Assembly (NCBI GenBank): GCA_964433645.1
Contig: CAYSSK010000004.1
Span: 2,989-66,988, forward strand
Source of the DNA: an uncultured Desulfofustis sp.
GTDB lineage: Bacteria > Desulfobacterota > Desulfobulbia > Desulfobulbales > Desulfocapsaceae
DNA length: 64,000 nucleotides
Reading direction: 5' to 3'
Of this stretch, positions 37,123-52,833 are shown piece by piece. The notes beneath the pieces are model-generated. The model worked only from the letters and a program-made list of their open reading frames with translations, did not search any database and was not told the DNA's origin. The position numbers and the translations under genes are program-made. Positions within the stretch are counted from its first letter, which is position 1; every line of letters begins with the position of its first letter.

Positions 37123-37342
37123 CGACTTGTTCCACTCCTTTATTGCCGTGATTGATGAGATATCGACCCGATGCGGGCCGGTTCTTGGGATGACCTAGGA
37201 AACTACTCTGAAATCAGGATTTCCGGCAAGTTTTTTTTGCCGCGCAGCACGCGCCCGGCACCACTGCCCGCCCCGGCAAAATATCTTCATGCAGCGTGCT
37301 TCACCCCCTGTCAAAGCAGTTTTCTTTCCCGCGGCGATACCG

Positions 37343-37348
37343 TATAAT
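37343..37348 (+). promoter_or_regulatory. Candidate sigma70 -10 hexamer (TATAAT) for the CBS-domain gene
   Basis: A perfect TATAAT lies 64 nt upstream of ATG 37412. The -35 at 17-nt spacing is poor (TTTTCT). Confidence 0.3.
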
Positions 37349-37411
37349 GGAGCTGCAATCGCCCCGTATCGCCCCGGTGCGACCCCGCTTGCGATCAACC
37401 AGGAGGATGAC

Positions 37412-38089
37412 ATGTATATCGGCCGGATCATGCGTACCGATCTGATTACCGTCTCGCCCGAAGCGACCCTCGTTCAGGCGCGAAAACTGATCGAGGAGAA
37501 AAAGATCGACCACCTGCTGGTGGTCAACGACAAGGGCAAACTGGTCGGCTTGCTGTCCGACCGCGACCTCAGGCAACACTGGGCATCACCGGCAATCTCT
37601 CTGAGCGCTCACGAACTGGGATACCTGCTCGACAAGATCCTGGTCAAGATGATCATGATCAAGACCATCGTCACCGTAACCCCGGAAACGACTATCGAGC
37701 GGGCCGCCCTGATCATGCAGAGCAACAATATCAATTCTCTGCCGGTCATGGACAAGGGCGAGCTGGTCGGCATCATCACCAGCACCGACGTGATGCACGT
37801 CCTGCTCGAGGCCATCGGCATGAACGAGGAGTCGGTGCGCATCAGCGTCCTGGTCGAAGACCGCATCGGCACCATTGCCGAGGTCAGTGCCATTCTGCGG
37901 GATCTCGACATCAACATCCAGAGCCTGGTGACCTGGCCGTTGCGCAACCATCCGGGAATTCACCAGATGATCATCAGGCTTCCCGGTGATGACGGCGCCC
38001 GCGCGGTGGCCGCCTTGAATCGCAATCGTTATAAAGTAATGACCCACTATATCAAGGACATGACCCCCTACCTCCCCAAACCCTCCTGA
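37412..38089 (+). CDS. CBS-pair plus ACT domain protein (AcuB-like)
   Basis: Start at MYIGRIMRTDLITV, with AGGAGG upstream. It has two CBS motifs (..HLLVVNDKGKLVGLLSDRDL; ..NSLPVMDKGELVGIITSTDV) and then an ACT-like SVLVEDRIGTIAEVSAILRDLDINI. Confidence 0.8.
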   Translation: MYIGRIMRTDLITVSPEATLVQARKLIEEKKIDHLLVVNDKGKLVGLLSDRDLRQHWASPAISLSAHELGYLLDKILVKMIMIKTIVTVTPETTIERAALIMQSNNINSLPVMDKGELVGIITSTDVMHVLLEAIGMNEESVRISVLVEDRIGTIAEVSAILRDLDINIQSLVTWPLRNHPGIHQMIIRLPGDDGARAVAALNRNRYKVMTHYIKDMTPYLPKPS

Positions 38090-38251: not shown

Positions 38252-38267
38252 CGGTGCGAAAGTTGCA
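38252..38267 (+). promoter_or_regulatory. Weak candidate sigma54 -24/-12 element (cGGtgCG-aaag-TTGCA)
   Basis: The GG and GC dinucleotides are at the canonical 12-nt register and the -12 TTGCA is perfect. The -24 box is poor. It lies about 130 nt upstream of the kinase ORF. Confidence 0.25.
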
Positions 38268-38302
38268 TAAAAAGGGCAGAAAGGGGAACCGATATCCGCC
38301 TG

Positions 38303-38316
38303 CCACAATTGTGTGG
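38303..38316. promoter_or_regulatory. Palindromic operator-like site CCACA-ATTG-TGTGG (site A)
   Basis: Perfect 5+5 inverted repeat with a 4-nt spacer in the leader of the kinase operon. The same motif recurs at 43128, 43149, 49046 and 49089. Confidence 0.5.
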
Positions 38317-38399
38317 TATACTAGGCAAGCACCCCTATCACAACAGGGCATGCCACGGTTTCGTGGCTGAAACAGACCGGCACAGGGGGAATACCGACG

Positions 38400-40445
38400 A
38401 TGTCCCCGGCAAGGATACAGCGGGCTGCTCACGGCAACCAGGTTATGATGCGCCGCACCAAGGTGCTGCGGGCCATCAACCGTTTGAGCAACACCGATCT
38501 GACCAATCTGAGCCGCAGCGAAATATTGACCCGCTGCGGCGAGATCATGCTGCTCAACAGCGAGTTCTGCGGCGGCTGGGTCGGACGATACGATGCCGAG
38601 GAAAAACAATTGGTGCCGCTCGTCTTCTTTCTGCCGCTGCTGCGACCGGACGGCAGCAGGGAGTTGTTCCGCAAACAGGTGCTGCTCGAAGAACCGATCG
38701 TTGCGCCGGCCCGGCAAGCCATCGAAAAACGCCGGCGGATCATCCTCAAAAACATCGATCCGCCGCTGCATATTCCGCTGCTGCCCGGTGAAATCTCGTT
38801 TCACTCGGCCGGTTGCTGGCCGCTGGCCCACCTCGATCAGGTGTATGGGACCATTACCGTCTATTCATCCGAGCACAACGGCTTCCCGAAATCGGAACTC
38901 GATTTCCTCGACGGCACCGTCATCGATCTGTCCCTGGCCCTCTACGCCCACAATGTTTCCCTGCTGCTCCAGTACGAGCGTGATTTCAGCACCGAGATCA
39001 TCGATTCCATCCAGGCCTTGATGGTCTCGGTCACGCCCTGCGGCAAGATCCTGCGATTTAATACCGAAGCCGAGAGAATCAGCGGCTATCGCCAGCAGGA
39101 GGTGCTCGACCGCTACTGGGTCGACGTGCTTCTGTCTCCGGAAACCCGGATTCATTATCAAAATCTGTTTTCCGAGCTGCTGAAAAGCGACCGCCGCAAT
39201 CTCAGTTTTCGGGCGCCGCTGCTGACCAGGGACGGAACCCTGCGCACCATCGACTGGCACAGTTCGATCAAACCCGACATCGACCGGGGGACCGTCGGCA
39301 TGGTCCTCTTCGGCCTGGATATCACCGACCGGCTGGCGGCCGACCGCCTCTACGACAGTACCGTCGCCAAGTGGAAAAACATTTTTACCACCATTCAGGA
39401 CCCGGCTCTGATCGTCAGCCGCGACGGCGTCATTCTCGACGCCAACCATGCCACCTTGTCCGCCTCCCGCAAGAGCCGCGAAGAGGTTATCGGCCAATCG
39501 GTCTGCGTTATCCTGCACGGCGGCCGCACACGCGAAAGCGTCTGCCCGCTGGAGACAATTGTTAAAAGCGGCAAGAGCCGCATTCTGCATACCGAACTCA
39601 ACGGCCTGCACGGCGACTATCTGCTCACCATCAGTCCGTGCCCGAACACCTCGGTCAACGAAAAGATGACCCTGCTCGTCGCCCGCGACATGACCGAGGA
39701 AGAGCGCCATAAGGCAGAGGCGATCAGGGCGGCGCAACTCGCCTCCCTTGGCGAACTGGCCGCCGGCGTCGCCCACGAAATCAACAACCCGATCAACGGC
39801 ATCCTCAACTATGCCCAGATGCTGCGCGATCTCTCCCTGGATGGCCAAGGCGAACAGATAGCCGGCCGAATCATCGATCAGAGCAAACGAATCGCCGGTA
39901 TCGTCAAGAATCTGCTCGATTTCTCCCGGCCAAAAGTCGAGGAGCCGGAGCCGGTCAACTGCCGGGACCTGCTGCACGACTGCATCGAGTTGGTCAAGCA
40001 CCAGCTGCAAAAAGATGATATCCGCCTTGCATTCGAATTCGACATCCCGCTGCCGCTGATCTATTGCAACGCATCCCAGGTGCAGCAGGTGTTTCTCAAC
40101 ATCATCAGCAACAGCAGATACGCCCTTAACCAACGATACGGCACAAAACACCAGAACAAGAAAATCATCTTCAAGGGAACGATGACTCACCATGGCCGGA
40201 CGCCCTACGTCCGAACAACCATCACGGATTTCGGCTCCGGTATCGAACACCGGCTGATCGATCGGGTCCTTGAACCGTTTTTCTCAACCAAACCGGATGG
40301 CCAGGGCACCGGCCTCGGCCTGAGCATCAGCTACGGACTGATCAGGGACAACGGCGGTTATCTGCACATCAAGAGCCGCTACGGCTCGCACACGTCGATT
40401 CAGGTCGATCTGCCGGTGGTTGCCGGCGAAGGAGGAACGCTATGA
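38400..40445 (+). CDS. Cytoplasmic sensor histidine kinase (GAF-like + PAS + PAS + HisKA + HATPase_c)
   Basis: 681 aa with no obvious TM segment. H-box ELAAGVAHEINNPINGI, N-box FLNIISNSRYAL, G-boxes DFGSGI and GTGLGLSISYGLI. The start could be 38448 (MMRR). Confidence 0.85.
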   Translation: MSPARIQRAAHGNQVMMRRTKVLRAINRLSNTDLTNLSRSEILTRCGEIMLLNSEFCGGWVGRYDAEEKQLVPLVFFLPLLRPDGSRELFRKQVLLEEPIVAPARQAIEKRRRIILKNIDPPLHIPLLPGEISFHSAGCWPLAHLDQVYGTITVYSSEHNGFPKSELDFLDGTVIDLSLALYAHNVSLLLQYERDFSTEIIDSIQALMVSVTPCGKILRFNTEAERISGYRQQEVLDRYWVDVLLSPETRIHYQNLFSELLKSDRRNLSFRAPLLTRDGTLRTIDWHSSIKPDIDRGTVGMVLFGLDITDRLAADRLYDSTVAKWKNIFTTIQDPALIVSRDGVILDANHATLSASRKSREEVIGQSVCVILHGGRTRESVCPLETIVKSGKSRILHTELNGLHGDYLLTISPCPNTSVNEKMTLLVARDMTEEERHKAEAIRAAQLASLGELAAGVAHEINNPINGILNYAQMLRDLSLDGQGEQIAGRIIDQSKRIAGIVKNLLDFSRPKVEEPEPVNCRDLLHDCIELVKHQLQKDDIRLAFEFDIPLPLIYCNASQVQQVFLNIISNSRYALNQRYGTKHQNKKIIFKGTMTHHGRTPYVRTTITDFGSGIEHRLIDRVLEPFFSTKPDGQGTGLGLSISYGLIRDNGGYLHIKSRYGSHTSIQVDLPVVAGEGGTL

Positions 40446-41185
40446 TACGTTACCATCGAAACACCGTTCTGGTCGGGCTCGTCCTCGGCGTTTACACACT
40501 TTTACTGGTAACCCCCGCCTACCTTGTCCGGGGAAGCGGTGATCTCCCGGAAAACACCCTGATCGGTCCCGCCGCCGCGACGATAGCCCTGTTCTGCGCG
40601 ACGCTGCTCGCGCTGCTGTCGATCATCTCCTCGCTGCGCAAGCGGATCGAGACCGTCCAGGCAGAGTTGAGCCGACGGGAGGCGGAGCTCTCCGACATCC
40701 GCTTCAACCTGGAAAAGACCATCGAGAAACGCACGTTTGAAATCTCCGTGGTCAACGCCTCGCTCAACAGGGAGATTGCCGAGAGGCTGCAGGCCGAAAC
40801 GCGGAGCAAGGAATTGCAGAAACAAATGGAGTTGATTCTCAATTCGGCCGGCGAGGGTATTTTCGGCCTTGATACCGACGGCAAGCTGACTTTCGTCAAT
40901 ACCGCCGCCGCGCTGATGCTCGGCTGGCAGCGGAAAGAAATGATCGGCAGGAACCATCATGAACTGGTCCACCACAGCCATGCCGACGGCAGTCCGCATG
41001 ATCCGGAAGAATGTCCGATCCGCCAGGCATTTCAGGACGGCATCGTCCATTTCAGTTCCGATGACGTGTTCTGGACCAAGGACGGCACCTGTTTTCCGGT
41101 CGAATATGTCAGTACGCCGATCATCGAGCATTCGATGATCAAAGGGGCCGTGGTCGTTTTCCGCGACCAGAGCACCTTCTCTTGA
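40442..41185 (+). CDS. Membrane-anchored PAS-domain protein without output domain
   Basis: 247 aa. It has two N-terminal TM segments (VLVGLVLGVYTLLLV; AATIALFCATLLALLSIISSL), a coiled coil and one PAS domain (ILNSAGEGIFGLDTDGKLTFVNTAAALMLGW...). Its start overlaps the kinase stop (ATGA). Confidence 0.75.
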   Translation: MIRYHRNTVLVGLVLGVYTLLLVTPAYLVRGSGDLPENTLIGPAAATIALFCATLLALLSIISSLRKRIETVQAELSRREAELSDIRFNLEKTIEKRTFEISVVNASLNREIAERLQAETRSKELQKQMELILNSAGEGIFGLDTDGKLTFVNTAAALMLGWQRKEMIGRNHHELVHHSHADGSPHDPEECPIRQAFQDGIVHFSSDDVFWTKDGTCFPVEYVSTPIIEHSMIKGAVVVFRDQSTFS

Positions 41186-41255
41186 CCGGCAGCAAGGCCC
41201 GCTCCGCGAATTCGGCACGATCCGGCCGCCGGAAACGAGGCAAGGAGGAACAAAC

Positions 41256-43091
41256 ATGACGGAAAAACACGACGGAACGGGAGCGATTCTGGTGGTCGAT
41301 GATGAGGCCAGCCTCCGGGAGACCTTTCATTTCTTTCTGTCCCGGGAAGGATACGACCCGGTCCTGACCGCGGCCGACTTCGACCAGGCCTTTGCGACAC
41401 TCTCTTCCACGCCGGTCGACCTGGTTATCTCCGATATCGTGCTGCGTGACGCATCCGGCATCGAACTCCTGAAGAAGGCGCGGCAAAACGGCATCGACAG
41501 CCCCTTTATCATCATCACCGGTTACCCGGACGTCGACACCGCCGCCGAGGCCGTACGCTACGGCGCCTTCGACTATATCGTCAAGCCCGTCGACAAGGAT
41601 GCGCTGCTGCGTTCGGTGCGGCTCGTCCTTCGACAGCGCCACCTGGAGCGATTGAAGGTCCGGGCGGAAGAGGAGCGAGAGCGCTACCGGCTGCTGCTCG
41701 ACACGGTTTTCAGAAGCGTCGCCGATGCCATCGTCATCGTCGATGACCAACTGAATATCATCAACCTCAACGCCGCCGCTCGCCAACTGTTTGCCGACCT
41801 GCTGCCCGGCTTCGAGGAAGGAGCGAACCTCAATTCCTCCATCCGCTCCAGTGAATTTTCGACACTGCGCACCGACCTGCTGCGTGTCCTGCAGACCGGT
41901 GAGGACGTCGTCGAACATCGTTTCGAATGCAACACCATCGACAACAAACCGAAAATCTTGAGCATCTGCACGTCACCGTTTGCCGAGGGCGGGGCGCAGC
42001 ATCATGGCGCCGTCATCGTCATTCGTGACATGTCCGTCTGCGGCGAGCAGCAGCGCAGCCGCCGGAGCAGCTTCCACCGGTTCCTCGGCAGCAGCGATGT
42101 GATGCAGGCAGTCTACACGATGATCGAAAACGTCGGCCGGGTCGACACCACGGTCCTGATCACCGGCGAATCGGGAACCGGCAAGGAACTGGCGGCCGAA
42201 GCCCTGCACCTTGAATCCAGCCGGCGCACCATGCCGCTGATCAAGGTGGACTGCACGGCCATCCCGGAAAATCTGCTGGAAAGCGAACTGTTCGGCCACA
42301 AAAAAGGCTCGTTCACCGGAGCCGACAAGGACCGGCGCGGCCTGATCATGCAGGCCGACGGCGGCACCTTGTTTCTCGATGAGATCGGCGAGATCTCGGC
42401 GATGACCCAGCTCCGTCTGCTGCGCTTTCTGCAGGAACGGACCTTCTACCCGGTGGGCAGCGACACGCCGATGACCGTCGACACCAGGGTGATTACCGCA
42501 ACCAACGTGGATCTGCGGGAAAAGGTGCAGCAGGGAACCTTTCGTGAAGACCTCTACTTCCGCCTTCGCGTTATCGATATCCACCTGCCGCCGCTGCGGA
42601 AACGAAACGGCGACATTTTGTTGCTGGCCGGCCATTTCGTCAAGAAATTCTCGGAAAAGCTGCATAAACCGATCAACGGCCTGTCCGATAACGCCTTCAA
42701 AGTGTTGACCAGCCATCACTGGCCGGGCAACGTCCGCGAACTGGAACACCTGATCGAACGGGCGGTGGTCCTCTGCCAGGGCGTCACCATCACCATCAAG
42801 GACCTGCCGCAGGACCTTGCGGAACCGGATGATCACAGCGACATGACACCCTCTTTTGATACAACGCCCCGTTTTGACACGGCAACCCGTTTGACAAAGC
42901 ATGAGGCCCCGCCAACGGACGATCAGGCCGCCGACAAACTCGGTTCAGCCGCCCTGCGGATCCTCGGCACGCTCAACAAGTGCGGCGGCAACAAGGCCAA
43001 GGCCGCCCGGCTGCTCGGCATCGACCGTTCGACACTGTATCGCAAGATCAAGGAATACGATATCGATCTCTCGACATTCTCCCTCGAATAA
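41256..43091 (+). CDS. Sigma54-dependent response regulator (REC-PAS-AAA+-Fis HTH; NtrC family)
   Basis: REC domain (ILVVDDE...DLVISDIVL), PAS, AAA+ domain with GESGTGKE, the GAFTGA-type loop GSFTGA, ESELFGH and an R-finger region, and a C-terminal HTH AARLLGIDRSTLYRKIKEY. Confidence 0.9.
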   Translation: MTEKHDGTGAILVVDDEASLRETFHFFLSREGYDPVLTAADFDQAFATLSSTPVDLVISDIVLRDASGIELLKKARQNGIDSPFIIITGYPDVDTAAEAVRYGAFDYIVKPVDKDALLRSVRLVLRQRHLERLKVRAEEERERYRLLLDTVFRSVADAIVIVDDQLNIINLNAAARQLFADLLPGFEEGANLNSSIRSSEFSTLRTDLLRVLQTGEDVVEHRFECNTIDNKPKILSICTSPFAEGGAQHHGAVIVIRDMSVCGEQQRSRRSSFHRFLGSSDVMQAVYTMIENVGRVDTTVLITGESGTGKELAAEALHLESSRRTMPLIKVDCTAIPENLLESELFGHKKGSFTGADKDRRGLIMQADGGTLFLDEIGEISAMTQLRLLRFLQERTFYPVGSDTPMTVDTRVITATNVDLREKVQQGTFREDLYFRLRVIDIHLPPLRKRNGDILLLAGHFVKKFSEKLHKPINGLSDNAFKVLTSHHWPGNVRELEHLIERAVVLCQGVTITIKDLPQDLAEPDDHSDMTPSFDTTPRFDTATRLTKHEAPPTDDQAADKLGSAALRILGTLNKCGGNKAKAARLLGIDRSTLYRKIKEYDIDLSTFSLE

Positions 43092-43113
43092 CCGTCCACG
43101 ACAACACTCGTTG

Positions 43114-43162
43114 CAACACTTCTGTTGCCACACTTCTGTGGTTTCCTGCCACACAAGTGTGG
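43114..43162. promoter_or_regulatory. Cluster of three 14-bp palindromes: CAACA-CTTC-TGTTG, CCACA-CTTC-TGTGG, CCACA-CAAG-TGTGG
   Basis: Sites at 43114-43127, 43128-43141 and 43149-43162. The last two are perfect matches to the motif at 38303, with centres 21 bp apart. The cluster lies 23 nt after the activator stop codon. Confidence 0.55.
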
Positions 43163-43209
43163 CCCGATCGCCAGTTCCATCTCTTTTTTCTTAATATATG
43201 AAAATCGGC

Positions 43210-43231
43210 GGGACAGGTTTTAACCTGTCCC
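43210..43231. repeat. 22-bp perfect palindrome GGGACAGGTTTTAACCTGTCCC (copy 1)
   Basis: An identical 22-mer occurs at 51987-52008. Both copies lie in 3' intergenic regions and form a 9-bp stem with a 4-nt loop. Confidence 0.7.
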
Positions 43232-43498
43232 CCGCTCACTTTCACTAACCGGATCTTCCAACCACGGCGCCGATTTTCATCGTTCGTTGTGACCTTCGGT
43301 CATGGACGTTATATGAAAATCATCTCCCCGGGCTGGTTGATTCTCTCGGAGGCTGCCTCGCGACAGCCCGGCTGGCCGGAGAATCAGGCCCGAAGGGTGG
43401 CGGACAACCTCACCGCCCGGCCACGCAGCACCCGTCAGATCGCAACCCGTCATGCGGCGGACAAAAACAAGCGTGAAATACGGCTGCTCCCGCCACTC

Positions 43499-43514
43499 CG
43501 GCATCCAATATGCA
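43499..43514 (+). promoter_or_regulatory. Candidate sigma54 -24/-12 promoter (cGGCAT-ccaat-ATGCA)
   Basis: GG and GC are in the canonical register. The sequence closely resembles the element at 49216 (TGGCAT-tattg-GTGCA). It lies 56 nt upstream of ATG 43570. Confidence 0.35.
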
Positions 43515-43569
43515 CAGCCAGAGATAAAGCTGCCGAGTCTTTAACGGCCGGAAACGATGGAGGGACCCG

Positions 43570-44484
43570 ATGCCACAGGCTCCACCCCTGCCTGACGACC
43601 AGAACCGGTGGTCGGCTCTGCTGCGGGACGAAACATGGTGCACCCACTATCTCTTCCTGCTTCGCTGGCCGCAGGATTTCATCTGTCCCGCCTGCGGCCG
43701 CAGCGGCGGCCGCAGGCCGCCGGCAACACGGATTACCTGCCGGAATTGCGGCAAAACCACATCAATTACCACCGGCACCCTGTTGCACGGCACCAAGAAG
43801 CCGCTTTCCTTCTGGCTCCAGGCCTTCTGGTGGCTCAGCTCGCTGCCGCAGCAGCTGACCGGTAAGACGCTGCAGCGACATATGGGCCTGAAGAGCTACC
43901 AAACGGCCTGGAGCTGGCTGAAGACCCTGAGGCGAGCGATGAAGAATGCAGACCGACAGCGGTGTTCGGGGACGATCGAACTGGACTGCGGCTTTGTCGA
44001 TTTCGGCAGTGACGAAGCACACGGGCGCTACCTGCTGGCCGCAATCGAGGTGGAGCCGAAACACCGGCTGCCCGGCCGACTCCACTTGGCCCACTGCGCG
44101 ATCCCGACAGAATCGCTGCTTGTCGCGTTCATTGAAAACACCACCGATCCCGGCAGCACCATCCTGGCCCCCGACCGGCGGCTCTTTTGTTTACAGAACC
44201 GGCCGGATCGTCTCTATCTCGTCGAAACCGGCTGCAACGACCAGGAACGTGCCCGAGAAGCGATCAACCGCTGTTGCACGGGCTTTCGTGAGCAGCAGGG
44301 TCCGAAGTGTTCGCCGGCCCGTCTCCAGGAACATCTCGACGAGTTCTGCTTCAGAAATAACAGCGCTCTGCTGGCCGACCGACGCCTGATATTCGACCGC
44401 CTCATCGAGGCCATGCTGCTGCACAATGGCCGCAACCGCCGACCGAGAATCGGCGAGCCGCACCCTGCCGGAGGTCTGCCATGA
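43570..44484 (+). CDS. IS1595-family transposase-like protein (zinc-ribbon + ISXO2-like domain), divergent
   Basis: The N-terminus reads CTHYLFLLRWPQDFICPACG...CRNCGKTTSITTGTLLHGTKKPLSFWLQAFWWL...YQTAWSWLKTLRRAM. The tail reads RLQEHLDEFCFRNN. These follow the IS1595 transposase pattern (YL...RWP.gf.CP.CG / GT.f..tk.PL..W / LQ.YLdEF.FR.N). The stop overlaps the ftsH start. Confidence 0.6.
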   Translation: MPQAPPLPDDQNRWSALLRDETWCTHYLFLLRWPQDFICPACGRSGGRRPPATRITCRNCGKTTSITTGTLLHGTKKPLSFWLQAFWWLSSLPQQLTGKTLQRHMGLKSYQTAWSWLKTLRRAMKNADRQRCSGTIELDCGFVDFGSDEAHGRYLLAAIEVEPKHRLPGRLHLAHCAIPTESLLVAFIENTTDPGSTILAPDRRLFCLQNRPDRLYLVETGCNDQERAREAINRCCTGFREQQGPKCSPARLQEHLDEFCFRNNSALLADRRLIFDRLIEAMLLHNGRNRRPRIGEPHPAGGLP

Positions 44485-46298
44485 ATATTCCGGTACGCGT
44501 TCTGCTGGCTCTGATCCTGACAGCTATTCTTATTTTTATCGGTTTCAATATCTATCATATCAGCACCCGCCTGCCGGAACGCTCCTACAGCGCCTTTCTC
44601 GACGACCTGGAACGGGGTGAAATCAACGAAGTAACCATCAAGGACGGGGTGATCACCGGCACCGATCGGCAGCAACGTCAATTCACCACCTATTCGCCCG
44701 ATATCTCCTCGCTGATGCCCCTGCTGCGCCGACACCAGGTGGACATAACCACTAAAGCGGCATCCCGGGGCAGCGCCTTCATCAGGGAGCTGTTGCTGGT
44801 GCTGCTCATTCTCGGCGGTTGGATGATTCTGAGCCGCAAGCGAAACAACCAGTCATTGCAGTTTGCCCGCAACAAAACCTACCAGCGGAATCTCAGCAAC
44901 CCGACTCGGGTCTCGTTCGATGATGTGGCCGGGATCTCCGAGGCCCGGGAGGAACTCAAAGAGATCACCGCTTTTCTCAAAGAGCCGGAAAAATTCGGCG
45001 CCCTTGGCGGCCGTATCCCGAAGGGCGTGCTGCTCCAGGGGCCGCCGGGAACCGGCAAGACGTTGTTGGCCAAAGCCATTGCCGGCGAGGCCTCGGTACC
45101 CTTTTATTCCCTCGGCGGTTCCGATTTCGTCGAAATGTTCGCCGGGCTCGGCGCCTCCCGGGTTCGCGATCTGTTCGCCGAAGCCAAAAAGAATGCCCCG
45201 TGCATCATTTTCATCGACGAAATCGACGCCATCGGCGGCAGGCGAGCCGGCCAATCCCGGGGCGGGTCCAACGACGAACGGGAGCAGACCTTAAACGCGC
45301 TGCTCGTCGAGATGGACGGCTTCACCTCCCATGAGACGGTGATCGTCGTCGCCGCCACCAACCGTCCCGATATTCTCGATTCGGCCCTGCTCCGGCCGGG
45401 GCGATTCGATCGACGCATCACTCTGACCCTGCCCGACATCCGGGGACGAGAAAAGATCCTCGCGGTTCACAGCCGCAAGGTCGCCGTCGGCGGCACTGTC
45501 GATTTTGCCGCGGTGGCCAAGGGAACACCGGGTTTCAGCGGGGCGGAAATCGCCAATCTGGTCAACGAGGCGGCTCTGCTTGCCGCGCGCAAGGGAAAGT
45601 CGCTGATCGACCTGAGCGATTTCGAAGAGGCCAAGGACAAGATCATCATGGGGCTGGAGCGGAAGAGCGCTGTGATCAGCGAAAAGGCCCGGCGACTCAC
45701 GGCCTATCATGAAGCCGGTCACGCGGTCCTTGCCGCCCTGCTACCAGAGACCGATCCGTTGCACAAAATCACCATTATCCCGCGCGGCCAGGCACTTGGC
45801 CTGACCCAGCAACTGCCGTTCGACGAGCACCTCACCTATTCCCGGGAATACCTGATCAACAAGATCAAGATCCTGCTCGGCGGCCGGCTGGCAGAAGAGA
45901 TCATTTTCGGCACCCTGACCACCGGCGCGAGCAACGACCTCCAGTCGATCAGCCGGATCGCCTATCGCCTGGTCTGCACCTTCGGCATGAGCAGCCATAT
46001 CGGCCCGCTGGCCTGCAGCGACCTGGCCGACCAGATAACCGGCGACCCGGGCGACATCAACTGGCAGCGTAGCGAGGAGACCCGGCGGGAGATCGATATG
46101 GAAATCAGAAATATCATCCTCTCCTGCTACCAGAGCGCCAAGGAGGTGCTCAACGACAACAGCGATTTCCTGCATATGCTCGCCGAAGCATTGCTGGTCA
46201 ATGAAACACTGGACAGCGAAGAGGTGGACATCATCCACCGCTGCTACCTCAATGAGCATGAGCAACATCACAAGAAATGGGACATCGTGCCCAGCTAG
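44481..46298 (+). CDS. ftsH: ATP-dependent zinc metalloprotease FtsH
   Basis: 605 aa with two N-terminal TM segments, Walker A GPPGTGKT, Walker [10 protein letters not shown], the [23 protein letters not shown], and the zinc motif HEAGH. Confidence 0.95.
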
Positions 46299-46311
46299 CG
46301 AGGAGTCTGCC

Positions 46312-46773
46312 ATGAATATCCGTCACCAGCCTGTTTCCCGGGGTATGCTCCCGCTGCTCGGCCTGGTCTTTGTTCTGACCACCGCCGGCAGGAGCAGTGC
46401 CGCAGAGCCACCCGACTATCTGGATATCGACGTGCTCAGCGACCGTTACGAAGAGGTGGCCTTCGACCATGAACTGCATGCCGACTACGCGGCATGCAGC
46501 GAATGCCATCATCACACCACCGGCCAAGCCCCGTCCGACCCGGTCTGCGCGACCTGTCACCAGGCCGGTGAAGAAGCTGAGACGGTATCATGCGCAACCT
46601 GCCATCCGGCACAACCGTTTTCCGAAGAGCTGATCGAGCAGAAAGCGCATTCCACCCGCTATCACCTCGACATCGTCGGGCTGCAGGGGGCCTACCATCT
46701 GAACTGCCTCACCTGCCACGAAGCGATCGGCGGCCCGACCGGCTGCCTTGATTGTCATCAAAGTAAACCGTGA
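46312..46773 (+). CDS. Periplasmic multihaem cytochrome c (c3-family-like, five CXXCH)
   Basis: Start at MNIRHQ, followed by a signal peptide. The c3-like FDHELH motif is present. Haem motifs are CSECH, CATCH, CATCH, CLTCH and CLDCH. Confidence 0.85.
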   Translation: MNIRHQPVSRGMLPLLGLVFVLTTAGRSSAAEPPDYLDIDVLSDRYEEVAFDHELHADYAACSECHHHTTGQAPSDPVCATCHQAGEEAETVSCATCHPAQPFSEELIEQKAHSTRYHLDIVGLQGAYHLNCLTCHEAIGGPTGCLDCHQSKP

Positions 46774-46793
46774 ACCTGGGGGAGGAACCTGTC

Positions 46794-47744
46794 ATGAACG
46801 GTCCGTTGTCCCGTCGAAACTTTCTGAGAACCGGCCTAGCCGCGTTTTCTGCAACGCTGCTCACTACTCGCGCCGACAAGGCCGCCGCCCGCGAATTCGA
46901 AGGTTATCGGGAGAGCAAGGGGGTCCTGGTCGATTTGACCAGGTGCATCGGCTGCCGCAGTTGCGAAGCGGCCTGCAACAAAGAACAGGGATTGCCGCCG
47001 CCGGAAACCGGCTTTGACGATCCAGCCGTTTTTCAACTGGACCAGCACGGCCAGCCGCGGCGCCCGGACGATCGGGCCTATACCGTGGTCAACCGCTACC
47101 AAACGGAGCTGGCCGACCATCCGCTGTTTCGCAAGATCCAGTGCAATCACTGTCTGGAACCGGCCTGTCTGACCGCCTGTTTCGTCAACGCCTATACCAA
47201 GACACCGGAAGGCGCCGTGATCTACGATGCCGATGTCTGCGTCGGCTGCCGCACCTGTATGATCGCCTGTCCGTTTTCGATCCCGGCCTTCGACTATTCG
47301 AGCCCTTTCGAGCCGCGCATCATGAAGTGCATCTTCTGTTACGACACCCGCCTGGTCAACGGTCAGCCGCCGGCCTGCGTCGAGGCCTGCCCGACCGAGG
47401 CACTGACCTTTGGCGAACGGGAAACACTGGTGCGCATCGGGCGCAAACGGATCCGCGAACGTCCCGGCCGCTATGTCGATCATATCTACGGCGAGCACGA
47501 GGCGGGCGGCACCGCCTGGCTCTACCTGTCGGGGGTGCCGCACCGCGAAGTCGGTTTCGACATGGACGTGCCGAAACAGCCGATTCTCACCTACGTCAAG
47601 GATTTTCTGGCCATCGTGCCGATGGTGTTGACCATCTGGCCGGCACTGTTTGCCGGCTTTTATCTGCTGGCCGGCCGCGGACACAAAACGATCGATGAAC
47701 CCCACGCAGCCCAGGAGGACAGTCATGAAAGCACTGGTCAATGA
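46794..47744 (+). CDS. Tat-exported 4Fe-4S ferredoxin-type subunit (HybA/DmsB/NrfC-like) with C-terminal anchor
   Basis: Twin-arginine signal SRRNFLRTGLAAF. Cluster motifs are CIGCRSCEAAC, CNHCLEPACLTAC, CVGCRTCMIACP and CIFCYD...PACVEACP. ATG 46794 has GGGGGAGGA upstream. Confidence 0.85.
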   Translation: MNGPLSRRNFLRTGLAAFSATLLTTRADKAAAREFEGYRESKGVLVDLTRCIGCRSCEAACNKEQGLPPPETGFDDPAVFQLDQHGQPRRPDDRAYTVVNRYQTELADHPLFRKIQCNHCLEPACLTACFVNAYTKTPEGAVIYDADVCVGCRTCMIACPFSIPAFDYSSPFEPRIMKCIFCYDTRLVNGQPPACVEACPTEALTFGERETLVRIGRKRIRERPGRYVDHIYGEHEAGGTAWLYLSGVPHREVGFDMDVPKQPILTYVKDFLAIVPMVLTIWPALFAGFYLLAGRGHKTIDEPHAAQEDSHESTGQ

Positions 47745-48975
47745 GGCGCCCGGCCTGCCGATCGACCGCAGCCGCAAAGATCACGCATCATCTTGGAATT
47801 TCAAAGAAAAGATATTGCTCGGGCTGTCGGTCCGCGATTATCTGGCCCAGATGGTGCGCAATCCTGTCAACTGGGTCCTGGTCGCCATCCTGTTGCTCGG
47901 CATCCCGCTGCTCGGTCAGCGCTACCTGTTCGGCCTGGCCAGCGTCACCCACGGTTCGCAGGATTATCCCTGGGGGCTGCTCCTCGGTTTCGGCCTGTTC
48001 GCCATGGTACCGCTGTCGGCGTCCGGGTTTTTGCTGAGCACCGCCGTGGAAATCTTCCACCGTAAGGACTTCCTGCCGATCGAACGGCTGGCCCTGCTCA
48101 ACGGCCTGCTCGGCTACTTCTTCGCCGTCGTCTACCTGCTCGTCGATCTCGGGATGCCGTGGCGGCTGACTTACCCGATGATCGTCTCCTTCGGCCCGGC
48201 CGCCGTGCTCTTCCTCGTCGCTTGGCACGTGGCCACCTATCTCTCCGTCCAGATCGCCGAAATGGTGCCGGCCTTTGCCGAATGGGCCGACTGGCCGGCG
48301 GCCAAACGCTGGATCAAGAGCATCGCCCTGGGGCTGACCATCGCCGGCATCATCCTGTCCACGCTGCACCAAGGTGCGCTCGGGGCGCTGTTCTGCTACG
48401 CCCCGGCAAAAATTCACCCGCTCTGGATCTCGCCCGAATTCCAATGGCTGCATTTTTTCTGCTCGTCCATCTTCGCCGGGCTCTGCATGGTCATCATCGT
48501 CTCGACCCTGCTCAAACATTTCATGACCTGGCGCTGTGACGCCCGCTTTCTCGAGAACCTCGACCGGATCACCATCGGCCTGGCCAAAGGCTCCGCCTAT
48601 GCAATGATCACCTATCTGGTGATCAAACTTGTCGCGATTGCCCACGACCAGGAATGGCAATACCTGATCACCGGCTGGGGAGTCTACTATCTCCTTGAGT
48701 TGGGAATCGGCGTTGTGCTGCCGATGGTGCTGTTCGCCCGCGGCGTCCGCAACCACAATGTGGCGATCCTGCGTTTCGGAGCGGCCATTGCCGTTCTCGG
48801 CATCATCTGGAACCGGCTCAACACCGTTCTGGTCGCCTACAACTGGCGCCAGTACCAGGAACTGCCGACCTGGCAGGAAACCTGGATCGTCTTCACCGTG
48901 CTGGCCTTCTATTTCATCATCTATCGCTTCATCCTCTATCGGTTGCCGGTCGTCTTCAGCTGGAAACAGGTCTGA
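47725..48975 (+). CDS. NrfD/PsrC-family quinone-interacting integral membrane subunit
   Basis: About 416 aa with about 10 TM segments. Its position directly after the FeS subunit (short overlap) is typical of NrfCD/HmcBC/Cbc-type modules. Confidence 0.8.
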   Translation: MKALVNEAPGLPIDRSRKDHASSWNFKEKILLGLSVRDYLAQMVRNPVNWVLVAILLLGIPLLGQRYLFGLASVTHGSQDYPWGLLLGFGLFAMVPLSASGFLLSTAVEIFHRKDFLPIERLALLNGLLGYFFAVVYLLVDLGMPWRLTYPMIVSFGPAAVLFLVAWHVATYLSVQIAEMVPAFAEWADWPAAKRWIKSIALGLTIAGIILSTLHQGALGALFCYAPAKIHPLWISPEFQWLHFFCSSIFAGLCMVIIVSTLLKHFMTWRCDARFLENLDRITIGLAKGSAYAMITYLVIKLVAIAHDQEWQYLITGWGVYYLLELGIGVVLPMVLFARGVRNHNVAILRFGAAIAVLGIIWNRLNTVLVAYNWRQYQELPTWQETWIVFTVLAFYFIIYRFILYRLPVVFSWKQV

Positions 48976-48983
48976 TCGAGCAC

Positions 48984-49020
48984 GCCGGAACCGTAAGACC
49001 TTCGGTTCCGGCGTTTTTTT
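48984..49020 (+). terminator. Rho-independent terminator
   Basis: GCCGGAACCG-(9 nt)-CGGTTCCGGC forms a 10-bp G+C-rich stem, followed by G and T7. It begins 9 nt after the NrfD-like stop. Confidence 0.75.
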
Positions 49021-49045
49021 GCCTTCGTCTATCCAGAACAATACC

Positions 49046-49102
49046 CGACAATTGTGTGGCAGCGGCGCGACACATTGGCCGCCTGACGCCACAGGTCTGT
49101 AG
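49046..49102. promoter_or_regulatory. Two near-perfect copies of the CCACA-N4-TGTGG palindrome (CGACA-ATTG-TGTGG; CCACA-GGTC-TGTAG), a candidate UAS
   Basis: Sites at 49046-49059 and 49089-49102, each matching 9 of 10 motif positions. Their centres are 43 bp apart and lie about 120-165 bp upstream of the -24/-12 element at 49216. Confidence 0.5.
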
Positions 49103-49215
49103 TACTGCGCGACAGCCGCCCCGCCCCATCTTCGGAGACGCTTGCTCAAAGAGAGTTTTTACCCACAATTACAAATAGATACAAACGAACAAACAATGCG
49201 CGCAAAGTCGTTTCC

Positions 49216-49231
49216 TGGCATTATTGGTGCA
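49216..49231 (+). promoter_or_regulatory. Candidate sigma54 -24/-12 promoter (TGGCAT-tattg-GTGCA)
   Basis: It matches TGGCAC-N5-TTGCA in 9 of 11 conserved positions, with GG and GC correctly spaced. It lies 53 nt upstream of ATG 49284. A sigma54 activator gene lies 6 kb upstream. Confidence 0.55.
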
Positions 49232-49283: not shown

Positions 49284-49481
49284 ATGAAAACGATCGTCAC
49301 CACCAACAGCCGGACCGAAACCGATCTGCAGCACGAAGTATCGGGTTTTCTGTTCACCGTGGTCTCGGCCTCGGCCCTGATCATCGGAATCTGGGGAGCT
49401 GCCTGCCTGGTCGCCGGGCTGGTCAGCGGCGGCTTCATGTCTCTGGTCAAAGGATATGTGACCGCCCTCACCGGAATGTAA
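49284..49481 (+). CDS. Small membrane protein (65 aa), paralogue A
   Basis: AGGAGG lies 7 nt upstream of the ATG. It has one strong TM segment (FLFTVVSASALIIGIWGAACLVAGLVSGG) and a conserved tail SLVKGYVTALTGM, shared with the next ORF. Confidence 0.55.
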   Translation: MKTIVTTNSRTETDLQHEVSGFLFTVVSASALIIGIWGAACLVAGLVSGGFMSLVKGYVTALTGM

Positions 49482-49511: not shown

Positions 49512-49811
49512 ATGAAAACCAGTCCCTCTCGAGTCATGCTCAGCATATCGCTGGGCTTCGGCAGCCTGGTCGGCCTCTGGGCGCTTGCCGCCCTGATCGG
49601 TGGTCTGCGCCAGACCGGCTGGCAGGTGAGCGAACTCCTGCGGCAATACATGGTGGCCACCGGCATGATCCAGCCGTTTCACACCCTGGTCGATTTTTAC
49701 AGCCACATCAAAGGGGTCGAATACCTGATCTGTGTCGCTTTCTTCGTCGCCTTTCCACTTTTTTTCCGCTATGTCAACGAAGAACGCAAAGAGGTACGCA
49801 CGGAGAAATGA
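49512..49811 (+). CDS. Small membrane protein (99 aa), paralogue B with extra C-terminal TM
   Basis: GGAGGA lies upstream. GSLVGLWALAALIGGLRQTG...SELLRQYMVATGM aligns with paralogue A. A second TM segment follows (YLICVAFFVAFPLFF). The 3' end overlaps the convergent HAD gene by about 43 nt. Confidence 0.55.
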   Translation: MKTSPSRVMLSISLGFGSLVGLWALAALIGGLRQTGWQVSELLRQYMVATGMIQPFHTLVDFYSHIKGVEYLICVAFFVAFPLFFRYVNEERKEVRTEK

Positions 49812-51945: not shown

Positions 51946-51986
51946 CGGGGACAGATTGAAACCAGCCCGCGAACAACGCCTGCCCG

Positions 51987-52008
51987 GGGACAGGTTTTAA
52001 CCTGTCCC
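51987..52008. repeat. 22-bp perfect palindrome GGGACAGGTTTTAACCTGTCCC (copy 2)
   Basis: Identical to 43210-43231. It lies between the convergent aminotransferase and rubredoxin-fusion genes. Confidence 0.7.
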
Positions 52009-52023: not shown

Positions 52024-52644
52024 TTAATCCTTAAAGACCAGTTTGCCGCCCATGTGGCCGGCCAGACCGGCGGCGGCGACCATCACCACGCCGAGCAGCA
52101 GATAGATCCAGCGGCCCGGTGAAGCGAGCACCTGCGGATCGACCAGACGCCAGACGACCATCGCGATCAGCGTCGCGCTGACGATGGCCGAAGCACCGAT
52201 CTTGGTCGCGAAGATTTTGGTCATCACCTTCTTGTAGCGATTCTTCCATTCCAGATAACCGGTGATCAATACCACCGGCATGATCAGCAGCACGAAAACC
52301 AGGTTGTAGAAGGCCGCCTGCTCAAACCCGGCCACACTGAACACCAGGGCGATAACGAGAAACACCAAAGCCAGCGGCAATACGCCGTTGGGGGTATGGA
52401 CGGATATCGGGTGCAGGTGGTATGTAAGCACCAGGCCGACGATGCCGCTTGGCGAAGGCTGTCCGCCGCTCGTTCCGGCCGGCTCGGTTGCCGCCTGCGG
52501 GGCCGGGGATTCGCTTGGTGCCGGCTCGGGCTCATCAACGATTTCCTTGAAATATTCGGCGCCCGCACCACAGACCGGACAGGTCTCCGGCGGTGCATCC
52601 CCCTCGTGAATATAGCCGCAGACCGTACATTCCCATTTTTTCAT
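52024..52644 (-). CDS. Rubredoxin-type domain fused to a DUF2231-like membrane domain
   Basis: The start [32 protein letters not shown] carries two CxxC knuckles. A Pro/Ser/Ala linker is followed by 4 TM segments with the HP.SVH.P motif ([12 protein letters not shown]). Confidence 0.75.
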
Positions 52645-52833
52645 GCGCGTGTCCTCCCTGATTATCCCTGTCACACCGGTTTAACCCGGCTTCACTATCC
52701 TACAAATATCCGGAAATGCAGTTATTCTACCATACCAACGGTCGTTCTGCCAGCAGCGAATCGATACCGGCAGCTCACGACAAACCAGGCCACCCGTCAA
52801 AATCCTCGATCGAGACAGGCAACCGGCAAACCA

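Follow-up and report, generated by a model that had tools for sequence, protein, structure and literature searches.

Intergenic palindromes at a Desulfofustis kinase/activator locus as probable binding sites of its sigma-54 activator

Activators of the NtrC type bind dyad sites that are phased by about two helical turns and lie upstream of -24/-12 (sigma-54) promoters. At glnAp2/glnAp1 of enteric bacteria, NtrC (GlnG) occupies inverted repeats of ~17-18 bp, arranged as phased pairs upstream of a -24/-12 promoter; NtrC also represses the sigma-70 promoter glnAp1, and a site overlapping a sigma-70 promoter gives autoregulation. Here we describe a recurrent palindrome, CCACANNNNTGTGG, in a 64-kb stretch of DNA from an uncultured Desulfofustis sp. 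of the order Desulfobulbales (the window), where it surrounds the genes for a sensor kinase and a sigma-54 activator. We consider it likely, with a probability of roughly 0.8, that these palindromes are upstream activator (enhancer-type) sites at which a sigma-54 activator with REC-PAS-AAA+-HTH_8 architecture, the product of the gene at 41256-43091, binds as dimers. Like NtrC, the predicted regulator is a sigma-54 activator of the two-component class whose helix-turn-helix is of the Fis type, and one site overlaps a sigma-70-like -10 box. In contrast to NtrC, the activator has a PAS domain in addition, and its predicted motif reads TGCMACA-N4-TGTKGCA instead of TGCACC-N5-GGTGCA. Its predicted targets serve membrane and redox functions instead of nitrogen assimilation, and the sites in the kinase leader lie downstream of a putative sigma-54 promoter, the reverse of the order at glnA.

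The hmc genes of Desulfovibrio are linked to the rrf1/rrf2 regulators and are not known to be linked to a sigma-54 activator. Comparison with that complex (HmcABCDEF) indicates that the iron-sulfur and NrfD-type subunits of the present locus score best against HmcB and HmcC, that the small membrane protein sm2 is weakly HmcD-like, and that the cytochrome resembles the C-terminus of HmcA and TmcA. However, the matches to HmcB, HmcC and HmcD all score below their equivalog thresholds, five CxxCH motifs in the cytochrome compare with the sixteen haems of Hmc, and no HmcE or HmcF homologue was seen; by these scores the complex is Hmc-like and not an Hmc equivalog. A sigma-54 activator that drives small inner-membrane proteins also recalls PspF and the phage-shock response, as an analogy only: PspF, which PspA controls, lacks a receiver domain; this locus has no Psp homologues, and its small proteins match no known family.

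Likened by gene context and comparative-genomic prediction, the closest analogue is the regulon of DVU3142, a sigma-54 activator predicted to control the ohcBAC octahaem cytochrome complex of Desulfovibrio vulgaris (Kazakov et al. 2015, PMC4641369). In both cases the activator gene stands beside an operon for a redox complex of periplasmic cytochrome c, iron-sulfur and membrane subunits, and the activator sites and -24/-12 promoter are predicted through comparative genomics. The two differ in bacterial order, in arrangement (divergent there, tandem here) and in content, where the present regulon adds FtsH, tandem small membrane proteins and apparent autoregulation. Searches of the literature turned up neither this Desulfobulbales regulon nor its motif. 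The palindromes are an ordinary kind of regulatory element, unsurprising in principle, and leave the understanding of sigma-54 regulation unchanged; it is the regulon itself that was not found described. Sulfur-cycling Desulfobulbales have many sigma-54 activators that are uncharacterised, and for one of them the palindromes supply a concrete binding motif and a set of targets, both open to test. Through the same motif, a single sensor system would be linked to an FtsH paralogue, an Hmc-like complex and a family of small membrane proteins, which hints at how the redox complex is controlled; scans with the motif could also extend annotation of the regulon to dozens of genomes and metagenome-assembled genomes.

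Scanning of the 64-kb window for CCACANNNNTGTGG reveals three perfect copies, at 38303-38316, 43128-43141 and 43149-43162, the latter two with centres 21 bp apart. Only 0.05 copies are expected, and three or more were reached in 0 of 100 dinucleotide-preserving shuffles. Tolerating one mismatch adds only the copies at 49046-49059 and 49089-49102 (five observed versus 1.55 expected; at least five in 2 of 100 shuffles), and the symmetric form CAACA-CTTC-TGTTG lies at 43114-43127. A first-pass annotation of this DNA had listed these copies and estimated that such a palindrome would seldom arise by chance; each coordinate was correct on rescan, and the excess over chance holds. Its report of no further copies is accurate for matches with at most one mismatch, but it missed a weaker site at 38351-38368 and a half-site at 49067-49072. 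Likewise, the CAACA copy is where it was placed, but 'variant' is the wrong label for a form that is about as frequent as CCACA family-wide.

Every copy is intergenic, and three gaps hold them all: from the CBS-ACT gene to the kinase gene, from the activator stop at 43091 to the next gene at 43570, and from the stop of the HmcC-like gene at 48975 to the first small-protein gene at 49284. Alignment of the copies extends the palindrome to the 18-bp motif TGCMACA-N4-TGTKGCA, beyond which the flanks differ. Within the window, this motif gives three matches at 13 or more of 14 positions versus 0.04 expected, and four at 12 or more versus 0.64. Symmetrising 56 sites, drawn from 19 related loci and the window, gives the profile TGCMACA-SWWS-TGTKGCA; its central W-W (A/T) preference formed no part of the rule by which sites were selected. 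Across 37-51 kb, Rfam returned sub-threshold chance matches only and no known RNA element, and a scan for sigma-70 promoters and terminators gave nothing relevant near the palindromes.

The second of these gaps directly follows three genes that together encode a signalling system:

38400..40445, + strand: cytoplasmic GAF-PAS-PAS-HisKA-HATPase sensor kinase (Pfam)
40442..41185, + strand: membrane-anchored PAS protein with two predicted transmembrane helices, a coiled segment and a PAS domain, without an output domain
41256..43091, + strand: sigma-54 enhancer-binding response regulator, REC-PAS-AAA+(GSFTGA)-HTH_8 (Pfam)

Inspection of the kinase for hydrophobic segments detected none. The activator contains the parts that its proposed role requires, namely an AAA+ sigma-54 interaction domain with its GSFTGA loop (Sigma54_activat, 2.9e-67) and a C-terminal Fis-type HTH_8 (1.7e-13, residues 569-601). 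Walker A and B are present, with GESGTGK at residue 304, GSFTGA at 351 and LFLDE at 372. Against the NCBIfam ntrC model it scores 405 bits, below the cut-off of 559. The sites are dyads, helically phased, upstream of -24/-12 promoters and beside the gene of an activator with the required domains, which together point to upstream activator sites of a sigma-54 enhancer-binding protein.

Two sets of loci were used for comparison. The close set comprises five Desulfofustis loci (L001-L005) with activator identity of 70-93% and identical gene order; the distant set comprises ~58 further loci, with ~50% activator identity and adjoining kinase and ftsH genes, for 63 loci overall. The first-pass annotation had proposed phylogenetic footprinting of the three intergenic regions, and in the close set this bears out its proposal of a shared site: at each of the three orthologous positions the palindromes are unchanged islands in flanking DNA that has diverged, and one spacer differs by ~225 bp.

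One arrangement of sites and promoter precedes the small-protein operon:

49044..49104, unstranded: predicted upstream activator array S1/half-site/S2 (one-mismatch scan and conservation)
49216..49231, + strand: -24/-12 promoter TGGCATTATTGGTGCA (9/11 consensus; conservation)

S1 (49044-49061, core CGACAATTGTGTGG) and S2 (49087-49104, core CCACAGGTCTGTAG) flank a half-site, GCGACA, that lies exactly between them at 49067-49072. The three centres are 22 and 21 bp apart, at approximately -189, -167 and -146 from the predicted transcription start; starts are placed throughout at ~11-12 nt past the -12 GC. Spacer alignment reveals that the ACA...TGT cores and the GCGACA half-site are retained in L003-L005, and CTGGCAT...TGCA of the promoter is invariant in four genomes. 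The earlier placement of these two copies upstream of a -24/-12 promoter is therefore upheld, with TGGCATTATTGGTGCA as that promoter. Both this operon in the window and the ftsH operon in L002 carry helically phased dyad sites within the ~80-200 bp expected of NtrC-type sites. The -24 GG/-12 GC elements downstream of the sites in the window, at 49216 and 43499, have stronger counterparts, TGGCAC-N5-TGCA, in distant orthologous loci.

A second array lies directly behind the activator gene, ahead of the ftsH operon:

43112..43164, unstranded: predicted upstream activator array F1/F2/F3 (motif scan; conserved after the activator stop in L002-L005)
43499..43514, + strand: -24/-12 promoter CGGCATCCAATATGCA for the Zn-ribbon/ftsH/cytochrome/HmcB-like/HmcC-like operon (conservation)

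F1 (43112-43129, TGCAACACTTCTGTTGCC), F2 (43126-43143) and F3 (43147-43164) have centres 14 and 21 bp apart, and F1 with F2 forms a 14-bp tandem duplication. The promoter block CGGCAY-N5-ATGCAC, ~55 bp ahead of the start codon, does not vary between the window and L002-L004 and is also present in L005, amid flanks that diverge. Between array and promoter the DNA is not conserved: L002 has ~150 bp there, whereas the window and L003 each carry ~225 unrelated extra bp. Relative to the predicted start, the array stands at about -179 to -144 in L002 and, because of the ~225 bp inserted relative to L002, at about -404 to -369 in the window. Such tolerance of enhancer distance fits action through DNA looping.

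The kinase leader holds the remaining sites, in a different order:

38252..38267, + strand: -24/-12-like element CGGTGCGAAAGTTGCA (GG-N10-GC), candidate sigma-54 promoter (conservation in the kinase leader)
38301..38318, unstranded: site K1 TGCCACAATTGTGTGGTA, core 38303-38316 (motif scan and six-genome conservation)
38351..38368, unstranded: site K2 TGCCACGGTTTCGTGGCT, a weaker symmetric variant 50 bp past K1 (motif scan and relatives)

Alignment of six sequences reveals that the GG and TTGCAT of the -24/-12-like element are invariant, including in L005 (AGGCGCACTAATTGCA), where the flanks have diverged. The conserved upstream block as a whole reads GGTGCGAAAGTTGCAT, and its L005 version, AGGCGCACTAATTGCAT, keeps GG-N10-GC and TTGCAT with the intervening bases changed. 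K1 overlaps an extended -10-like sequence, TGgTATACT, at 38314-38322, and the block that joins K1 to TATAMT, TGCCACAATTGTGTGGTATAMT, is nearly invariant in six genomes, L004 and L005 being otherwise unalignable here. The core of K2 in the window is CCACG-GTTT-CGTGG (38353-38366), where close relatives read CCACAGCTTCGTGG; across relatives the site appears as TGCCACAGCTTCGTGGCT in L001-L003 and as TGCCACACAACTGTAGGA in L005, and is lost in L004. The position of K1 and K2 downstream of the -24/-12-like element, with K1 on the extended -10 box, suggests autoregulation of the kinase/PAS/activator operon, either sign being compatible with the sequence. It also qualifies the reading in the first-pass annotation, since the geometry of these two sites is not that of upstream activator sites.

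Beyond Desulfofustis, the motif or its half-site GCAACA/TGTTGC is found just behind the orthologous activator gene across ~60 Desulfobulbales loci, and the sites lie ~100-400 bp upstream of conserved -24/-12 promoters. In the 63 loci, matches at 12 or more of 14 positions occur at 0.42 per kb in the 950 bp past the activator stop versus 0.04 per kb elsewhere, and most of those elsewhere are 14-bp-phased arrays between ftsH and the cytochrome gene. Observed counts exceed shuffled ones in Desulfofustis (19 versus 0.8), in an Hmc-type group (33 versus 4.4) and in the distant group (14 versus 5.8). In contrast, 16 loci with unrelated activators show no motif excess (2 observed versus 2.2 shuffled). 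With a crude coding mask the motif occurs at 0.79 per kb in intergenic versus 0.05 per kb in coding DNA. This ~15-fold enrichment is conservative because the open reading frame mask counts the sites at 49044 and 49087 as coding, owing to a spurious antisense frame in GC-rich DNA.

The Hmc-type group (L006-L018 except L016, with L056-L059) has the gene order kinase, activator, sm1, sm2, ftsH, cytochrome, HmcB-like, HmcC-like. Repeats of the TGCAACA-N4-TGTTGCA type follow its activator gene, and then a strong TGGCAC-N5-TGCA promoter before sm1. Further arrays of 3-5 units with a 14-bp period stand between ftsH and the cytochrome gene, mostly at the ftsH stop codon, ~100-370 bp upstream of a GGCAC/T-N5-NTGC (-24/-12) promoter of the cytochrome operon (for example TGCAACACATCTGTTGCAACAGATGTGTTGCA in L018). 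The distant group has a half-site layout instead, with three or four TGTTGC at an 11-bp period and then two GCAACA; here the density of the half-site hexamer is 13.5 per kb over the first 270 bp past the activator stop versus 1.16 per kb elsewhere, and a TGGCAC-N5-ATGCA promoter lies ~200 bp past that stop. When perfect 5-Nx-5 palindromes behind the activator gene were tallied with no motif assumed, no clear winner emerged across all loci. Distant sites are imperfect or are 11-bp direct repeats. Across the order, the target genes keep their synteny with the kinase and activator genes. In 45 of the 63 loci the sm family is present in one to six tandem copies directly behind the sigma-54 promoter, with six each in L016 and L021. 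The three transcription units that the palindrome links in the window had been described as otherwise unrelated-looking: the link by motif stands, but the units are not unrelated, because they are contiguous in one cluster in other genomes, and sm2 is weakly HmcD-like.

Several observations weigh against the assignment of all these sites to the adjacent sigma-54 activator. K1 and K2, at approximately +32 and +82, have an atypical geometry downstream of a putative sigma-54 promoter, and the F array of the window, ~370-405 bp from its promoter, lies beyond the usual distance. The elements at 38252 and 43499 match the sigma-54 consensus at 8 of 11 positions, as do 58 sites in the window versus 44.6 expected, such that a consensus-only scan did not separate them from background; because these matches are not significant alone, it is conservation that supports both elements. 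The gene rpoN was not among the open reading frames sampled from the window, in which no dedicated check for rpoN was made. Finally, the helix-turn-helix segment GNKxKAAxxLGIDRSTLYRK is conserved in activator orthologues, consistent with a shared half-site, but HTH_8 recognition helices are alike in many activators, and this conservation is therefore weak evidence of specificity.

That likeness of recognition helices leaves some room for a different binder, such as a global redox regulator encoded elsewhere, with the adjacent activator recognising other sequences. Motif excess, site positions, conservation of sites and promoters, protein domains and synteny are observed, and the identity of the binder, the sigma-54 dependence, the sign of autoregulation and the signal are inferred; the placement of kinase-leader sites on a sigma-70-like -10 box is repressor-like in geometry. 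We nevertheless consider another factor unlikely. The motif or half-site tracks the orthologous activator gene in ~60 loci, often beginning 0-60 bp past its stop; it is always ahead of a -24/-12 promoter, a promoter type that depends on an enhancer-binding protein; no excess is seen at loci with unrelated activators; and the cluster is without any other conserved DNA-binding gene. Conservation, the tracking of the orthologous activator and the domain content of that protein agree with the proposal in the first-pass annotation that the binder is a dimeric regulator with a helix-turn-helix, in the simplest case the neighbouring activator of the NtrC family.

The palindrome pair at 43127-43163 could also act mainly in RNA, as a hairpin for termination or stabilisation of the kinase/PAS/activator transcript. 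Directly past the activator stop codon, F2 and F3 are predicted to form a 15-bp stem with a 7-nt loop; the 109-nt stretch as a whole has a centroid structure of ~-24 kcal/mol and a minimum free energy z-score of -4.3, and in L002 the arms change yet keep pairing (CAACA...TGTGG and CCACA...TGTTG). This account has little probability as the principal role, since the stem is not followed by a T-run (27 nt separate it from the nearest one in the window, and in L002 the nearest is inside the loop), the sites at 38303, 49046 and 49089 have no stem partner, and arrays elsewhere lie upstream of promoters and not at gene ends only. A secondary, dual role of the F2/F3 hairpin is possible. An intrinsic (Rho-independent) terminator at 43127-43163 was considered and rejected, as the stem has no adjacent T-run and the terminator scan made no call there.

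That the palindromes are a generic dispersed repeat, of the repetitive extragenic palindromic (REP) or miniature inverted-repeat transposable element (MITE) type, or a local duplication with no regulatory role was rejected as very improbable: F1 and F2 are a 14-bp tandem duplication and a true REP-like hairpin element lies nearby at 43198-43280 and again at 51988, but the copies have in common the 18-bp motif and not their flanks, hold orthologous positions in different genera even where the DNA around them has ceased to align, and are confined in the window to the intergenic regions of one locus, the regulon, whereas the real REP-like element behaves otherwise, being absent from L002.

That element lies between the F array and its promoter:

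43198..43280, unstranded: small inserted repeat element; terminal inverted repeats of 13 bp, ATGAAAATCGGCG / CGCCGATTTTCAT, and a hairpin inside, GGGACAGGTTTTAACCTGTCCC

It falls within the ~225 bp missing from the close relative L002, and so has the look of a small element that is mobile or prone to insertion. Its REP-like hairpin, GGACAGGTTTTAACCTGTCC, recurs intergenically in the window (43198-43280, 51988-52007 and, in degenerate form, 51949-51968) and in L003 (12126-12145 and 20870-20889). A 12-bp direct repeat, TATATGAAAATC, is present at 43195 and 43310.

Returning to the sigma-54 activator as the binder, a mechanism can be proposed in which the cytoplasmic GAF-PAS kinase would phosphorylate the activator, possibly modulated by the membrane-anchored PAS protein. 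The signal is probably redox, given the PAS and GAF sensors. Activator dimers would bind the phased TGCMACA-N4-TGTKGCA sites and assemble into an AAA+ ring that, by DNA looping, would open sigma-54 RNA polymerase complexes at the promoters at 43499 and 49216. The first would serve the Zn-ribbon gene, ftsH, the cytochrome c gene and the HmcB-like and HmcC-like genes; the second, the two small membrane proteins. K1 and K2 would autoregulate the kinase/PAS/activator operon through activation from downstream, repression of a sigma-70 promoter, or both.

More tentatively, the locus may represent an order-wide Desulfobulbales module in which a sigma-54 promoter with a GCAACA-type enhancer drives 1-6 tandem small membrane proteins and a dedicated FtsH, with an Hmc-like complex added in one lineage. 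Such a module could mount a redox-sensing membrane remodelling or quality-control response, analogous but unrelated to phage-shock, and in Desulfofustis could autoregulate via enhancer sites downstream of its own sigma-54 promoter. Six loci (L010, L013, L056, L057, L059 and L008) have ftsH directly behind the activator gene, with a conserved GGCCCAAAGCTTGCA-type -24/-12 promoter. No array is recognisable between activator and ftsH in these six, and the nearest is ~2 kb downstream, past ftsH; enhancer sites may act from downstream here too.

The other genes of the locus, with one hairpin between them, are as follows:

37289-38089: CBS-ACT protein (Pfam/NCBIfam map)
43570..44484, + strand: Zn-ribbon protein derived from IS1595 transposase (Pfam Zn_ribbon_IS1595); its stop overlaps the ftsH start
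44481..46298, + strand: FtsH-family AAA+ zinc metalloprotease (TIGR01241, 724 bits versus cut-off 600; Pfam)
46312..46773, + strand: periplasmic c3-type cytochrome (five CxxCH motifs; signal-peptide-like N-terminus)
46770..47744, + strand: HmcB-like iron-sulfur subunit (NF045715, 396 bits versus cut-off 420)
47650..48975, + strand: HmcC-like (NrfD-type) integral membrane subunit, start codon uncertain (NF045714, 332 bits versus cut-off 550; nine hydrophobic segments)
48984..49020, + strand: intrinsic-terminator-like hairpin GCCGGAACCG...CGGTTCCGGC with seven T, at the end of the ftsH/Hmc-like operon (sequence reading; conserved in L003)
49284..49481, + strand: small membrane protein sm1, 65 amino acids, two hydrophobic segments (hypothetical homologues only)
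49512..49811, + strand: small membrane protein sm2, 99 amino acids, same family as sm1 (NF045712, HmcD, 23 bits versus cut-off 34, residues 56-86)

The Zn-ribbon gene had been read as IS1595-like. Its Zn-ribbon does derive from an IS1595 transposase, but the gene is not a recent insertion: it is intact and syntenic in L002-L005, at 86 to 32% identity, and matches NCBIfam transpos_IS1595 with 57.6 bits versus a cut-off of 75, over profile positions 2-72 of 215 only. It sits where more distant genomes carry small-protein genes, and a rearrangement that displaced those genes may have left it behind as a domesticated transposase. The hairpin behind the HmcC-like gene has a 10-bp stem, a 9-nt loop and seven T, and was missed by the consensus scan because its loop exceeds 8 nt.

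A Pfam search assigned no family to sm1, sm2 or the HmcC-like protein, and a search of sm1 against a large protein database returned six close hypothetical proteins only and no named homologue. The sm1/sm2 family comprises proteins of ~65-100 amino acids with two predicted membrane segments and a GxWG...L..G signature, and is without annotation. Beside the regulon, with no motif copy upstream, a gene on the minus strand (52024-52674) encodes a rubredoxin-like domain fused to a DUF2231 membrane domain; its product may be another redox-related membrane protein.

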